A DNA stretch of 64,000 nucleotides from Candidatus Azotimanducaceae bacterium (GCA_965205735.1 OZ242179.1:483162-547161); one strand, 5' to 3'. Shown: positions 25,762 to 30,455, counted from the first letter of the stretch. Numbers and translations are program-made. Notes: a model not told the origin generated them from the letters alone.

Positions 25762-26649
25762 ATGGCCAGTTCCACCGGCGCGGCCAAGGTGATCGTCGGT
25801 GTTTCCTATCCGGCAGTCATCACCTTCGGCTTCGGCATGTTCGCCGCGCTGGCGGCGCAAGGCCTGCATGTAACGCTGGCCTCCTACATTGCCGTGCTGG
25901 CCGGCGCCGCACTCGTCACACTGCACGAGTTGAAGTGGCCGTGCCGCGCCGAGTGGCGACCCGACTTGCGCGAGGTCGGCGCCGATACGCTGTTCATGCT
26001 CGTTGTGCAAGTCGCGCTGCCCTACTTCCTAACCATCACCCTGGTGATCTTCCTGGCCGAACAACTGCGCGTTGGTGGCTTTATCGTGGAAGGACTATGG
26101 CCCCACACGTGGCCCGTGGCCGCGCAGGCGTGCCTGATGCTGGTCGCTGCCGACTTCTTCCGATACTGGCTGCACCGTGCTTTCCACAGATTCCAGTTCA
26201 TGTGGTGCTATCACGCCGTCCATCACTCGCCGCATGGACTGTACTGGTTGAACGTGGGCCGCTTCCATCCCATCGAGAAGGCCATCCAGTTCGCCGTCGA
26301 CACCCTGCCGTTCGCATTACTTGGCGTGTCCAAGGAGGTCCTCGCCGCTTACTTCGTCTTCTATGCGATCAACGGGTTCTTCCAGCATTCGAACTGCGAC
26401 GTGCGGTTGGGGCCGCTGAACTACATCGTCAGCGGACCCGAACTGCACCGCTGGCATCACTCGGAATTCACGCAAGAATCGGACACCAACTTCGGCAACA
26501 ACCTGATCATTTGGGATCTCCTGTTCGGCACCCGTTTCCTGCCGGCTGACCGGGTGGTTGGTCGATTGGGGCTTGTGAATCGAAACTACCCAAGCGGGTT
26601 CCTCGCCCAGATGAAGACCCCGTTCGTAGCGGGGCTCGACGAGAGCTGA
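25762..26649 (+). CDS. fatty-acid hydroxylase / sterol desaturase superfamily membrane di-iron enzyme
   Basis: Histidine boxes HRAFH, HAVHH and HRWHH, with several TM segments. The ATG at 25762 has AAGGA 8 nt upstream. Confidence 0.8.
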   Translation: MASSTGAAKVIVGVSYPAVITFGFGMFAALAAQGLHVTLASYIAVLAGAALVTLHELKWPCRAEWRPDLREVGADTLFMLVVQVALPYFLTITLVIFLAEQLRVGGFIVEGLWPHTWPVAAQACLMLVAADFFRYWLHRAFHRFQFMWCYHAVHHSPHGLYWLNVGRFHPIEKAIQFAVDTLPFALLGVSKEVLAAYFVFYAINGFFQHSNCDVRLGPLNYIVSGPELHRWHHSEFTQESDTNFGNNLIIWDLLFGTRFLPADRVVGRLGLVNRNYPSGFLAQMKTPFVAGLDES

Positions 26650-28301
26650 TGTCGCCGCGGATAGGTCACCTGCTCGCCAGAACCGGCTTGTCCGCCATGC
26701 ATGGACGTCGTTTCGCACGCCTGCTCGCCGCGGCAAAGGCGCCTGTAGAAGCGCAACGAAAAGTGCTCGACGGCATTCTTGCATCGGGCGCCCGGACGGC
26801 CTTCGGCGAACGCCATGAATTCACCGCGATCCGCGATCTTGACGACTATCGCCGGGCGGTCCCGGTGCAGACCTACGAGGATCTGCGCGAAGACATCGAA
26901 GCGCAGGAATCCACCGGAGAGCCGCGGCTTACGCGGGAGCGACCCGTGTACTACAACCGCACCAGCGGCACTGTGGCGGAACCGAAGAACATCCCGGTGA
27001 CGGCAGCGGGCTTGAATGGAATCCAGAGGAACCAGCAGCTCGCCGCCTACGTGTTCTCGCGATGGCCGGGGCTGTTTGGCGGCAAGGTGTTCGCGGTGTC
27101 GGGCGCCGCCGTGGAAGGCCACATGGCAGGCGGCACGCCGTTCGGGTCCGCTTCTGGCCTGCTGTACCAGAAGCAGCCGCGGCTTCTCCGCGCCCGCTAT
27201 GTGTTGCCGGCAGGGCTGTCCGCCATCGAGGACTACGAGCAGCGCTACCTGGCGATGGCGGCATTCGGTATCGCCGAACCGCGTGTCACGTGTGCGGCGA
27301 CGCCGAACTCCTCGACGCTGATTCGTCTGCTCGACGTCGTCAACAGGCGCCCGGACGAGGTGCTGCGGATAGTAGCGGACGGACGCTGGCCGGACGGGAT
27401 CGGTTCCAACGCGGTAGCGGCGTCTGGACGCCAGCCGCGCCGGGCGGCCGAACTTCGGGCCGTCCTGGATGCCGCTGGAAAACTCTCCTATGCGGATATC
27501 TGGCCGGATCTTGCGGGTGTCGTGACCTGGACAGGCGGTAGTTGCGGGATCGCTATCCGCGCTCTCGTGCCTACCCTACCGGCCAACTGCGGGATCATCG
27601 AGTTGGGTTACGTTGCGAGTGAAGTCCATGGCACGATCAACGTCGATCCGCACCGCAGCCTCTGCCTTCCCACGCTTGATCAGACGGTCTTCGAGTTTGT
27701 GCCGCGTGAGCGTTGGGAAAGCGGCGACAGAACCGAAGTGATTGGCCTTGCCGAACTGGAGGACGACCAGGACTACTACGTGATTGTGACCACCGCCGAT
27801 GGCCTCTATCGGTACGACATGAACGACATCGTGCGCGTCACGGGACGGATTCACGACACACCGACGCTGGCGTTCGTGCAAAAGGGCAAGGGCGTGACCA
27901 GCATCACCGGCGAGAAGGTCCACGAGTCGCAGGTTTTGAACGCCGTCTGCTCGGCGCTCGAAGACCGGGACATCGAGTCGACCTTCTTCATCTCCCTTGC
28001 AGACCCGGAAACCGCCACGTATACGCTCTACGTTGAGACCCGAGAGGATGGTGCCTCGGATGCGGGTCTCGCGGGGCTGGTCGATGCGCGTCTTGGGTCG
28101 GCCAATATCGAATATCAGGGCAAGCGCGCCAGCGACCGTCTGCATCCAATGCGCGTCGTCTGGCTGAAGCGCGGCACCGGCGAAGCGTTCCGGGTGCGCC
28201 GGGTGGCCGAGGGGCAACGCGACGCCCAGTTCAAGTACCTGCACCTGCAGTACGCGGGAGAGTGCGGCTTCGACTTCGAATCATTCAGACGTTCGGAGTG
28301 A
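26649..28301 (+). CDS. GH3-family (acyl acid amido synthetase-like) adenylating enzyme
   Basis: 550 aa with an ANL/GH3-type phosphate-binding loop YNRTSGTVAEPKNIPVT and GH3-like overall length. Its start overlaps the upstream stop (TGATG). Confidence 0.65.
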   Translation: MSPRIGHLLARTGLSAMHGRRFARLLAAAKAPVEAQRKVLDGILASGARTAFGERHEFTAIRDLDDYRRAVPVQTYEDLREDIEAQESTGEPRLTRERPVYYNRTSGTVAEPKNIPVTAAGLNGIQRNQQLAAYVFSRWPGLFGGKVFAVSGAAVEGHMAGGTPFGSASGLLYQKQPRLLRARYVLPAGLSAIEDYEQRYLAMAAFGIAEPRVTCAATPNSSTLIRLLDVVNRRPDEVLRIVADGRWPDGIGSNAVAASGRQPRRAAELRAVLDAAGKLSYADIWPDLAGVVTWTGGSCGIAIRALVPTLPANCGIIELGYVASEVHGTINVDPHRSLCLPTLDQTVFEFVPRERWESGDRTEVIGLAELEDDQDYYVIVTTADGLYRYDMNDIVRVTGRIHDTPTLAFVQKGKGVTSITGEKVHESQVLNAVCSALEDRDIESTFFISLADPETATYTLYVETREDGASDAGLAGLVDARLGSANIEYQGKRASDRLHPMRVVWLKRGTGEAFRVRRVAEGQRDAQFKYLHLQYAGECGFDFESFRRSE

Positions 28302-28307
28302 ACGCGG

Positions 28308-29420
28308 ATGCGAATCAGCCGATTTTCAGTATTTACCTTTCCCGTGCCGTTCAAGGTGGTCTTCCGGCACGCGTCGGCGAGCCGCGACCGCGCTGAGAAT
28401 TTAGTCGTCGCCGCCCACGCCGAAGACGGTCGCGTGGGCTACGGCGAGGGATGCCCCAGGCACTACGTCACCGGCGAAACCGTGCCGGGGGGATTGACGT
28501 TCATTCGCGCCCATGCCGATTCGCTCGTTGCCGACGTTTGCGACACGGCGAGCCTGCGCGCGTGGATCGCCGACCACCGCAACGCCATCGACCGCAACCC
28601 GGCCGCCTTCTGTGCGATCGAGACCGCGATGCTCGATCTTTTCGGACGAATGTCCGGCAGATGCGTCGAAGAACTCATCGGACTGCCGAGGCCGAGCGGC
28701 GCCTTCGGGTACTCAGCCGTGCTGGGCAACGCGCCCTACCCCGCCTATCGATGGCAACTTCGCCGCTATCGCAAGCGCGGCTTTTCGGACTTCAAGGTGA
28801 AGCTGTCGGGGAATTCAGCTCGCGACCGGCGCAAGATGCTCGCCTTGGCCCGTGTGGCTGCGCGCATCCGGTTGGACGCCAACAACCTGTGGGCATCCGC
28901 CCCGGACTGCATTCGCCACCTGAACAACTTGCCGGGACAGGCATTCGCCATCGAGGAACCGCTCGCGGTGGGTGACCTGGAAGGATTCCGCGCGGTGGGC
29001 GAGGCTTCGTCCATGCGTGTCGTACTCGACGAGAGCCTGCTCCGCGCGGAGCAACTCGAAGCGCTGCCGGACCCCGAGCGCTGGATCGTCAACCTGCGCG
29101 TGTCCAAGATGGGCGGCATCCTGCGATCCATCGATGTCGCGAAACAGGCGGCCCGCCTTGGCATCGGCACCATCGTCGGCTGCCAAGTGGGCGAAACCAG
29201 CATTCTCACCCGGGCCGCGCTGCCGGTCATGCACTCCGCCGGCTCGAACCTTGTCGCGGCCGAAGGTGCGTTCGGCACACAACTCCTGCAACGCGACTTG
29301 ACGACGCCCTCCCTCATGTTCGGCGAAGCCGGACTATTGGACGCGCGGGACGTGCCCCGGGCAGCCGGTCTTGGGCTGGTCGTTTCCCACAAGGAACTGC
29401 AACCTCTGGGGGATTCATGA
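28308..29420 (+). CDS. enolase-superfamily enzyme, MLE subgroup (N-acylamino-acid racemase / dipeptide epimerase / OSBS-like)
   Basis: KxK motif (DFKVKLSG), metal ligands in RLDANN, IEEPL and VLDESL, and a second catalytic Lys in LRVSKMGG. Confidence 0.75.
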   Translation: MRISRFSVFTFPVPFKVVFRHASASRDRAENLVVAAHAEDGRVGYGEGCPRHYVTGETVPGGLTFIRAHADSLVADVCDTASLRAWIADHRNAIDRNPAAFCAIETAMLDLFGRMSGRCVEELIGLPRPSGAFGYSAVLGNAPYPAYRWQLRRYRKRGFSDFKVKLSGNSARDRRKMLALARVAARIRLDANNLWASAPDCIRHLNNLPGQAFAIEEPLAVGDLEGFRAVGEASSMRVVLDESLLRAEQLEALPDPERWIVNLRVSKMGGILRSIDVAKQAARLGIGTIVGCQVGETSILTRAALPVMHSAGSNLVAAEGAFGTQLLQRDLTTPSLMFGEAGLLDARDVPRAAGLGLVVSHKELQPLGDS

Positions 29421-29854
29421 ATCGCTGGTTCGCGCTCGGCACGTCGGTTCTCGGCATCGCCTTCCTCGGCCGCGTCGCCGGTCAACTCATCCAGGTCGTT
29501 TCTCCCGTAGCGTTTCTACCGCCGATGGAAAGCTGGCAGGGCAGCAACCTGCCGTACCCGGTGTTGTTGACAGCCCAGCTCGCGATTGTCGGGCTGGTCG
29601 GGTGGATATCCTTGCAGATGGCCGCCGGACGACGCGTCATCGCCTCGCGATGGGGAAGCCCGGTCATCGTGGTTGGCACCATCTACTTTGGCGTGATGGC
29701 GGCTCGACTGGTGTTGGGACTGACCTCGATGGCCGACGTCAAGTGGTTCGCGGTTCCGATACCCACGATCTTTCACCTAATGCTCGCAAGCGCCGCGATA
29801 CTGACCGGCGCGTACGCCCTCGCGCTCCCGTCGAAGGCGGACCGGGACCGCTGA
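29417..29854 (+). CDS. small integral membrane protein (about 4 TM), unknown function
   Basis: ATGA overlap with the upstream gene. Hydrophobic segments ALGTSVLGIAFLG, VLLTAQLAIVGLVGWI, VIVVGTIYFGVMAARLVLGL and IFHLMLASAAILTGAYALAL. Confidence 0.6.
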   Translation: MNRWFALGTSVLGIAFLGRVAGQLIQVVSPVAFLPPMESWQGSNLPYPVLLTAQLAIVGLVGWISLQMAAGRRVIASRWGSPVIVVGTIYFGVMAARLVLGLTSMADVKWFAVPIPTIFHLMLASAAILTGAYALALPSKADRDR

Positions 29855-29933
29855 CTGGTTGTCGGTCAGTCCACCGCGCTGTGCGATACTTCCGTCCTGT
29901 TTCAGCGATGCGCACAGCGCCTGGAGGCCTTCC

Positions 29934-30455
29934 ATGTCCATCTCACTCTACGATGCCACCGCCCTCACCTTTCTCCAGATTCTCGGCGGCGCAGAACGGG
30001 TGCTGGAGAAAGGCCGCGCCCACTGCGAAGCCAATGACATCGACCTGAACGACATTATCGAGATGCGACTGATCGAGGACATGCATCCGTTTCGATACCA
30101 GGTCATTGCCATGACCCACCATTCCCTCGGCGCCATCCGGGGCGTGCAAGCGGGAGCCTTCAGCCCGCCGCAAATGTCAGACCTCGACTACGGCGGTCTG
30201 CAGGATCTTGTCACCGAGACGCGCGGTGCGATCGAGCAGTACTCGCCCGACACGATAAACGGCCTTGCGGGCAACCGGATCGAGTTCGGGGGGGGCAGTT
30301 TCAGGCTGCCTTACGTGGGGGAGGATTTCCTGCTGTCGTTTTCGTTGCCGAACTTCTACTTTCACGCGACGACCGCCTACGACATGCTGCGCATGAGAGG
30401 TGTCCCAATCGGCAAGCGCGACTTCGCGGGCAGGGTGCGATTCTTGAAGAGCTGA
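29934..30455 (+). CDS. DUF1993-family protein
   Basis: MSISLYDATALTFLQILGGAERVLEKG... resembles DUF1993. The ATG at 29934 has GGAGG upstream. Confidence 0.6.
   Translation: MSISLYDATALTFLQILGGAERVLEKGRAHCEANDIDLNDIIEMRLIEDMHPFRYQVIAMTHHSLGAIRGVQAGAFSPPQMSDLDYGGLQDLVTETRGAIEQYSPDTINGLAGNRIEFGGGSFRLPYVGEDFLLSFSLPNFYFHATTAYDMLRMRGVPIGKRDFAGRVRFLKS

Follow-up and report, generated by a model that had tools for sequence, protein, structure and literature searches.

What is made by a bacterial operon in which a predicted GH3-type amido synthetase is encoded together with a membrane di-iron oxygenase, an enolase-superfamily enzyme and a small membrane protein? The question is raised by a locus of a Candidatus Azotimanducaceae bacterium (GCA_965205735.1, OZ242179.1:483162-547161), which was analysed as a stretch of 64,000 nucleotides, hereafter called the window, whose nearest relatives are metagenome-assembled genomes (MAGs) of Candidatus Azotimanducaceae in the order Pseudomonadales. 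The four genes are designated g1 (oxygenase), g2 (GH3), g3 (enolase superfamily) and g4 (membrane protein). The gene module is real, strongly conserved and partly fused, and it probably represents an undescribed variant of GH3-dependent aminolipid chemistry, with an orphan membrane protein and an atypical enolase-superfamily enzyme that has Arg264 at the end of barrel strand 6 (beta6). We tentatively predict, with confidence a little short of even, that the conserved module makes and tailors a membrane-associated N-acyl amino acid, either a lipoamino acid or an aminolipid precursor.

A scan of one genome per GTDB species returned 530 GH3 relatives, and the best 80 of these were examined with 10-kb flanks (18 loci from Gammaproteobacteria, 9 from Alphaproteobacteria, 27 from Acidimicrobiia and 26 from Dehalococcoidia/Chloroflexi MAGs). 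Searches with the window proteins (tblastn) found g1, g2 and g3 adjacent and collinear in all 80 loci except L023, where the contig end cuts the locus and g1 is missing, and L026, apparently a degraded second copy. The identities to the window proteins ranged from 52 to 94%, the median inferred gaps were 18 nt between g1 and g2 and 10 nt between g2 and g3, and g1 adjoined the GH3 gene in 79 of the 80 loci. Neighbourhood conservation had been proposed as a check by an earlier note on this DNA, and the triad was found to be co-conserved across four classes, with gene fusions in addition. All-against-all clustering of the open reading frames (ORFs) in the flanks of the 80 loci yielded no fifth class-spanning gene family, and the largest flank clusters covered 13 loci of a single Dehalococcoidia lineage (Rieske/LigXa, pantoate transferase, NUDIX, ABC and MFS genes). 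The neighbour-joining tree of the concatenated triad mostly followed class, with the Alphaproteobacteria split in two. One group was placed with the Gammaproteobacteria and the other was sister to the Dehalococcoidia, with which it shares the gene order with g4 upstream. This split implies some transfer between classes. Many host MAG names point to sponge microbiomes (Poriferisocius, Poriferisodalis, SB06xx, RHO, COS, IRC and Langseth bins), other host MAGs come from deep seawater, and two of the Acidimicrobiia families have been described as containing sponge-symbiotic lineages (PMC11706023).

More divergent relatives were collected by searching 1.84 billion cluster representatives exhaustively with g3 (HMMER), which gave 422 hits at E <= 1e-30. 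Among the best 150 of the 422 hits together with the window sequence, position 264 was Arg in 128 of 151 sequences and Lys in 17, all 17 Lys sequences having at most 47% identity; the g3 clade comprised at least 127 clusters at 50% identity among the same top 150 hits. The protein P0174 (1207 aa) is a FA_hydroxylase::GH3::MR_MLE fusion in operon order, and on its contig (L081) a clear g4 homologue precedes the triple fusion (E = 4e-43). Linkage of the triad held in five of the six informative Arg-264 representatives, which have 35-37% identity to g3. In L085, the hydroxylase, GH3 and enolase-superfamily genes are followed by a gene for a FadD11-like long-chain fatty-acid-CoA ligase. L084 encodes a hydroxylase::GH3 fusion (905 aa) and the enolase-superfamily enzyme, followed in the position of g4 by an ICMT/LmtA-like membrane O-methyltransferase, with a YbgC/FadM thioesterase upstream. 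In L090 and L091, overlapping genes encode a CYP102-like P450, a 2-oxoacid_dh-type acyltransferase, a hydroxylase::GH3 fusion (848 aa) and the enolase-superfamily enzyme, while L083 has a GH3 C-terminus directly upstream of the enolase-superfamily gene. The accessory genes of these divergent variants are lipid-related (fatty-acid-CoA ligase, acyl-CoA thioesterase, P450, acyltransferase and ICMT-like methyltransferase). The P450 of L090 was considered as a substrate clue and set aside, as its CYP102/CYP97/CYP51-like matches are too unspecific to name a substrate.

The Lys-264 sequences form a sister clade with other surroundings. None of the three informative Lys-264 loci had a GH3 or hydroxylase neighbour, and the neighbours were instead a patatin-like phospholipase, a PlsC-type acyltransferase and cNMP-binding proteins (L082, L087 and L088 among the loci). 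Because the linkage was seen in five of six Arg-264 loci and in none of three Lys-264 loci, the Arg-264 form appears, in this small sample, to be tied to the GH3-hydroxylase pair, and the sister clade might constitute a distinct system that is likewise related to lipids.

In GH3 enzymes, adenylation of a carboxylic acid is followed by transfer of the acyl group to the amine of an amino acid. The earlier note had recognised this family in g2 from a loop and the protein length, and the assignment was borne out by all three Pfam GH3 domains (N, M and C; E = 4e-45, 2e-19 and 7e-11), which scored 154.8, 69.6 and 43.3 bits versus a gathering cut-off of 23.6 bits. The loop YNRTSGTVAEPKNIPVT is GH3 nucleotide-binding motif I, and the motifs TSGTVAEPK (105-113), GYVASE (320-325) and GLYRYDMND (385-393) are invariant in the alignment of relatives; the GH3 nucleotide-binding motifs have been defined as SSGTSxGxxK, YGSSE and GLYRYRxGD (PMC12493201). 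The solved structures closest to g2 are plant GH3 amido synthetases (AtGH3.15, E = 6e-21). Judged from its sequence, g2 is a bona fide member of the GH3 family, and the profile searches that might have placed this 550-aa protein outside GH3 placed it inside.

The nearest precedent for the proposed chemistry is the GH3-like OlsH of Singulisphaera acidiphila, which uses ATP/Mg2+ to join a free fatty acid to an amino acid through the N-acyl bond of a lipoamino acid, yielding N-acyl-ornithine without CoA or acyl carrier protein (PMC12493201). g2 shares all GH3 nucleotide motifs with OlsH and has the Ser that corresponds to S115, which is essential in OlsH, and both the OlsH/OlsI operon and the window operon encode head-group-modifying enzymes, which are putative in the window. 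OlsH was also the only NCBIfam match of g2, although the score of 101 bits, with the best-scoring stretch covering just residues 18-219, fell far below the 620-bit cut-off of the OlsH lyso-ornithine-lipid synthetase equivalog (NF052613). The OlsH/OlsI system includes the alpha/beta-hydrolase OlsI and the methyltransferase OlsG, whereas the window operon has neither and its GH3 is partnered instead by a di-iron hydroxylase, an enolase-superfamily enzyme and an orphan membrane protein. The OlsH/OlsI hosts also belong to phyla different from the module hosts. No alpha/beta-hydrolase was found in the window operon, nor does the set of families conserved across the 80 loci contain one. Two enzymes fused to alpha/beta-hydrolases, P0193 and P0253 (L082), were considered as a link to OlsI and rejected, since both are Lys-264 enzymes and belong to the sister clade without GH3 or hydroxylase neighbours. 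The module resembles the OlsH route in its predicted first-step chemistry but is not a member of it. Neither the 2025 OlsH paper (PMC12493201) nor a 2026 review of aminolipid synthesis mentions an enolase-family or racemase partner, and literature searches on this combination of genes, as well as on GH3 in symbionts of sponges, yielded nothing on the cluster, the papers returned being confined to the glycoside-hydrolase 'GH3'.

The product of g1 matched FA_hydroxylase (PF04116, E = 3e-30) and has a hydrophobic N-terminus. The three His boxes of membrane fatty-acid hydroxylases/desaturases that had been read in it (HRAFH, HAVHH and HRWHH) are present with every His invariant in 78 sequences, the ten invariant His residues being H138, H142, H151, H154, H155, H169, H209, H229, H232 and H233. 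g1 therefore belongs to the FA_hydroxylase superfamily. Its best NCBIfam match was the ornithine-lipid hydroxylase OlsE, at 169 bits (E = 1e-49) over nearly the full length. It shares the di-iron His boxes and the membrane topology with OlsE, which hydroxylates C4 of the ornithine-lipid head group, but it is not an OlsE equivalog, as the cut-off of that model (NF052566) is 475 bits. Furthermore, OlsE acts with the OlsBA pathway, and no GH3 link or fusion was described for it in the literature found.

Enolase-superfamily enzymes first remove the proton alpha to a Mg2+-bound carboxylate. g3 carries the MR_MLE_C/N Pfam domains, and its AlphaFold2 model (pLDDT 96.2, pTM 0.94) has the capping domain and TIM barrel of this fold. 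K163 and K165 of the KxK motif lie at the end of beta2, and the Asp/Glu/Asp ligands are D190 at the end of beta3, E216 at the end of beta4 and D241 after beta5 (model strands 161-165, 186-190, 214-216, 237-240 and 259-264). All five residues are invariant in the 80 module sequences. The catalytic Lys residues of the MLE subgroup are located at the ends of strands 2 and 6, and correspond to K162 and K268 in the B. subtilis enzyme (bioRxiv 10.1101/2022.03.03.481873). Since the sixth model strand of g3 spans 259-264, barrel strand 6 ends with R264, and K267 sits in the short helix that follows. When g3 was compared with five solved enzymes by phmmer, N-[IL]-K-x-x-K-x-GG aligned ungapped to N-L-R264-V-S-K267-M-GG, and the register of the B. 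subtilis dipeptide epimerase, checked on E219 and D244, placed K268 opposite R264 and K271 opposite K267. Both R264 and K267 were invariant in 80 of 80 module sequences. K271, which is R266 in the Amycolatopsis NSAR, is a second-shell residue without substrate contact (bioRxiv 10.1101/2022.03.03.481873). The full MLE-subgroup catalytic set that the earlier note had credited to g3 is consequently confirmed for KxK and the three acidic ligands, but the Lys that it cited in RVSKMGG is the second-shell K267, and the beta6 Lys is replaced by Arg264. g3 has the second-shell residue without the two-Lys acid/base pair of the dipeptide epimerase and NSAR families.

The nearest structures to g3 (Foldseek, TM 0.8-0.86) were dipeptide epimerases, an N-succinyl-Arg/Lys racemase and NAAARs, and its nearest relatives (dipeptide epimerases, the B. 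cereus 2P88 racemase, NAAAR and DgcA) all act on the C-alpha of an N-acylated amino acid. g3 was far below every NCBIfam equivalog cut-off (DgcA, muconate cycloisomerase, OSBS and Ala-Glu epimerase), and the concern that it might cluster with OSBS or muconate cycloisomerases of known pathways was not realised. With the dipeptide epimerases YkfB/1TKK and 3JVA, the racemase BC0371/2P88 and the Amycolatopsis NSAR, it shares the fold, the KxK motif at beta2, the D/E/D ligands and, after beta6, a second-shell residue with a positive charge. Those enzymes act on N-acylated amino acids with a free carboxylate, such as a GH3 would produce. The g3 clade is set apart from them by the invariant Arg in place of the beta6 acid/base Lys and by its linkage to GH3 and hydroxylase genes. 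In the alignment with 3jva, the first Asp of the Asp-x-Asp element ('dld') was opposite g3 E319 and the second fell in a gap; we take this element of the epimerases to be the one that binds the ammonium group of the dipeptide. OSBS and the muconate-lactonizing enzymes belong to the same subgroup and carry out one-base elimination or cycloisomerisation with an electrostatic beta6 residue, and they therefore offer a mechanistic model for Arg at that position, although g3 is less similar to them in sequence than to the epimerases and is not accompanied by menaquinone or beta-ketoadipate genes. During OSBS catalysis, the beta6 Lys works by a cation-pi interaction and not as an acid/base (bioRxiv 10.1101/2022.03.03.481873). 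g3 should be described as a new family beside the dipeptide epimerases, and not as an epimerase, NSAR, OSBS or MLE.

These residues bear directly on the proposal that the module makes an N-acyl-D-amino-acid lipid or signal, in which g3 would be a true racemase or epimerase with R264 or K267 as the second acid/base. Such a role is suggested by the closest structures and HMMs of g3, which are two-base racemases/epimerases of N-acylated amino acids, and by the Lys that the sister clade retains at position 264. However, the beta6 Lys is Arg throughout the module members and in most of the wider clade (counts above), R264 ends beta6 in a model of very high confidence, the pKa of Arg is high, and we know of no enolase-superfamily racemase in which Arg has been documented as the base. 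The equivalent of K267 makes no contact with the substrate in the B. subtilis dipeptide epimerase (bioRxiv 10.1101/2022.03.03.481873). Since the beta6 Lys is replaced by an invariant R264, a classical two-base racemase is doubtful, and we consider this proposal unlikely. The hydroxylated N-acyl-(D)-amino-acid lipid suggested in the earlier note hence keeps its lipid part, which agrees with the OlsH precedent (PMC12493201), the OlsE-like g1 and the lipid-type accessory genes, and loses its D-amino acid step, which had rested on a catalytic Lys that is an invariant Arg.

The fourth product had been read as a protein of roughly four transmembrane segments, in line with the four long helices of its AlphaFold2 model (pLDDT 86.8). 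It gave no Pfam match at E <= 10 in four phylum variants and no PDB structural match at E < 0.001 (Foldseek). Seven intramembrane residues, Q26, Q54, Y90, M94, R97, W110 and H120, are invariant in 70 sequences. g4 was present in about 71 of the 80 loci at a variable position: it follows g3 in each of the 27 Acidimicrobiia loci and in 15 from Gammaproteobacteria, and it lies upstream of g1 in 24 Dehalococcoidia and 3 Alphaproteobacteria. It is a frequent but not obligate accessory of the module. No substitute gene emerged, as the loci without g4 have unrelated neighbours (AlkZ-like, MFS, CoA-transferase and GMC oxidoreductase), and hhalign showed no kinship of g4 to the PEMT/ICMT protein that occupies its slot in L084. 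A small DUF2809/VanZ-like membrane protein is encoded in L090 (893-1306, + strand) immediately ahead of the operon for the P450, the acyltransferase, the hydroxylase::GH3 fusion and the enolase-superfamily enzyme. Like the ICMT-like protein of L084, it suggests that the module usually recruits a small membrane protein, which is not always g4.

From GH3 chemistry, the OlsH precedent, the N-acyl-acting relatives of g3, the gene fusions and the lipid accessory genes, we infer that g2 makes a lipoamino acid that is oxygenated by g1 and acted on by g3 at the alpha-carbon; our predictions for the acyl and amino-acid substrates, for the sequence of reactions, for what g3 catalyses and for what g4 does are as follows. 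The carboxylic acid adenylated by g2 would most likely be a free fatty acid, and its acyl group would pass to the alpha-amino group of an amino acid by OlsH-like chemistry, giving an N-acyl amino acid with a free alpha-carboxylate. g1 would hydroxylate or desaturate the lipid, either on the head group or on the acyl chain. g3 would bind the free alpha-carboxylate via Mg2+ held by D190, E216 and D241, and the beta2 Lys K165 would remove the alpha-proton. Because K165 is a single Lys base and the second-base site carries a cationic Arg, the enolate would more likely be resolved by one-base chemistry than by two-base racemisation. A speculative example is the beta-elimination (dehydration) of a hydroxyl group, perhaps one installed by g1, with R264 acting electrostatically like the Lys in OSBS. 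g4 would serve as an accessory membrane partner. A substrate or product in the membrane is indicated by the fusion of GH3 to an integral-membrane di-iron oxygenase and by the lipid-type accessory genes.

Several observations weigh against the prediction of a lipoamino acid or aminolipid precursor. By profile score, g1 and g2 both appear far from the OlsE and OlsH equivalogs (169 of 475 and 101 of 620 bits), and neither ornithine nor any other particular amino acid is implied. The fatty acyl substrate is deduced from context, and plant GH3 enzymes use small non-lipid acids. As the conserved module has no OlsI-like O-acyltransferase, a full acyloxyacyl aminolipid is not predicted. With the family HMM, g4 was not found within 10 kb in about seven loci with adequate flanks. 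Some enzymes can employ Arg as general base, and K267 is close to R264, which leaves racemase activity some probability. In the Arg-264 representative L089, which consists of only 1.5 kb of contig, the enolase-superfamily gene is preceded by an unrelated, non-GH3 gene fragment; a GNAT-like N-acyltransferase in place of GH3 was considered for this fragment and dropped for want of Pfam support.

The substrate range of GH3 also suggests that the module might conjugate a non-lipid acid (aromatic, hormone-like or small) to an amino acid, giving a soluble signal or secreted metabolite, with the hydroxylase acting on the conjugate or on another lipid. All solved GH3 relatives use small acyl acids, and many hosts are sponge-associated, where chemical signalling is plausible (PMC11706023). 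An EntS-like MFS gene (MFS_1/MFS_3), which may encode a lineage-specific product exporter, lies divergently about 110 nt upstream of g1 in one Acidimicrobiia clade (L024, L030, L042, L049, L050 and L067), and unrelated MFS genes occur near the module in L006, L008 and L014. Nevertheless, GH3 is fused to an integral-membrane FA_hydroxylase in several lineages, the accessory genes encode fatty-acid and lipid enzymes, two of the four proteins are membrane proteins, and the MFS gene is lineage-specific. We regard a small-acid conjugate as improbable.

A third explanation concerns the flanking genes. Only the loci of the closest Gammaproteobacteria (L001-L005, L007 and L011) share the TonB-dependent receptor, NUDIX, DUF1993 and PutA genes with the window, and the receptor and DUF1993 were therefore rejected as parts of the system. 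SAR202 and sponge symbionts degrade recalcitrant organic matter with many enolase-superfamily paralogues, and the receptor gene lies directly upstream on the same strand in the window, but a catabolic or salvage route, in which a conjugate or lipid is imported through the receptor, hydroxylated, isomerised and re-ligated, is very improbable and the conjugate import suggested earlier is weak, given that these flanking genes are absent from the other 70-odd loci, that no receptor homologue was found within 8 kb of the modules in Actinomycetota/Chloroflexota (about half of the hosts), that GH3 is an ATP-consuming synthetase and that no hydrolase or dehydrogenase is conserved with the module in the 80 loci.

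The preferred reading, a membrane-associated N-acyl amino acid made by g2 and tailored by its partners, would have consequences for several fields. To our knowledge, OlsH (2025) is the single one among thousands of bacterial GH3 homologues for which a function has been demonstrated, and the module represents a second, tightly conserved bacterial GH3 system with different partners. g3 marks a large uncharacterised clade in which another residue takes the place of one considered to define the MLE subgroup, and this clade is relevant to the enolase superfamily as a test bed for function prediction from sequence. Among the hosts are abundant marine and sponge-symbiont lineages that have no cultured members and whose lipids for membranes and signalling are almost entirely undescribed, and a phosphorus-free lipoamino acid in such hosts would, if true, be ecologically relevant. 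A broader proposal is that marine sponge-associated and deep-ocean lineages (SAR202/Dehalococcoidia, Acidimicrobiia, Azotimanducaceae-like Gammaproteobacteria and Rhodospirillales) hold a widespread unrecognised lipoamino-acid/aminolipid pathway with GH3 coupled physically or genetically to a membrane di-iron oxygenase, an Arg-beta6 family catalysing a reaction new to the enolase superfamily (e.g., dehydrating a hydroxylated N-acyl amino acid to an N-acyl dehydroamino acid) and a new family of small membrane proteins. We consider this possible rather than probable.

The layout of the operon in the window is given in the table below, and the four ORFs agreed with the earlier description, as did, exactly, their junctions. 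The junction of g1 and g2 is TGATG at 26647-26651, g2 and g3 are separated by a 6-nt gap (28302-28307), and g3 and g4 overlap in ATGA at 29417-29420. The sequence AAGGA is found 6 nt ahead of the g1 ATG at 25762, and an alternative in-frame start of g1 is the GTG at 25732. The leader contained no Rfam family at E <= 1 and no convincing terminator, no terminator was found inside the operon, and no sigma-70-like promoter was found in or before it. The GC content of the operon is about 0.63, similar to most of the window.

Table. Features of the operon and its leader, with positions counted from the first nucleotide of the window
Feature	Position	Strand	Description
TonB-dependent receptor gene	23171..25522	+	upstream of g1, about 240 nt away
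Leader between TonB-dependent receptor gene and g1	25523..25761	+	5' intergenic
g1, OlsE-like membrane di-iron FA_hydroxylase-family oxygenase	25762..26649	+	295 aa; PF04116 match
g2, GH3-type ATP-dependent acyl-acid amido synthetase (predicted)	26649..28301	+	550 aa; three Pfam GH3 domains
g3, MLE-subgroup enolase-superfamily enzyme, Arg replacing beta6 catalytic Lys	28308..29420	+	370 aa; MR_MLE_C/N
g4, orphan four-helix membrane protein	29417..29854	+	145 aa; no Pfam family

Close relatives of the window locus differed in an uneven manner. Compared with L011, the flanks, g3 and g4 were 91-97% identical, while g1 was 88% and g2 85% identical; compared with L001, the identities were 92% for g1, 90% for g2, 89% for g3 and only 77% for g4. 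This mosaic suggests recombination inside the module between related strains. Two module copies occur in one genome on the Rhodospirillaceae contig CBDHFR010000004.1 (L016 and L026), and the L026 copy looks degraded, with a GH3 match over 2386 nt and a short g3 fragment left.

Downstream of g4, a DUF1993 gene is located at 29859-30455 (+ strand), with its listed TTG start 4 nt past the g4 stop. Because the Pfam match begins at residue 30, the start is more likely the ATG at about 29934, and the gene is probably outside the module, as it is kept with it only in the closest Gammaproteobacteria. Farther upstream, at 15256-21837 (- strand), the window encodes an RHS/YD-repeat protein of 2193 aa with SpvB, Big_9 and cadherin-like domains. 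This stretch has a GC content of 0.68-0.70 versus about 0.62 elsewhere, and its ORF contains near-identical tandem repeats of 261 nt in 3.4 copies (19997-20874, 94% matches) and of 237 nt in two copies (20895-21364). Another SpvB-domain ORF lies nearby at 9353-11431 (- strand), and the region looks like a Tc-toxin/RHS-type locus.

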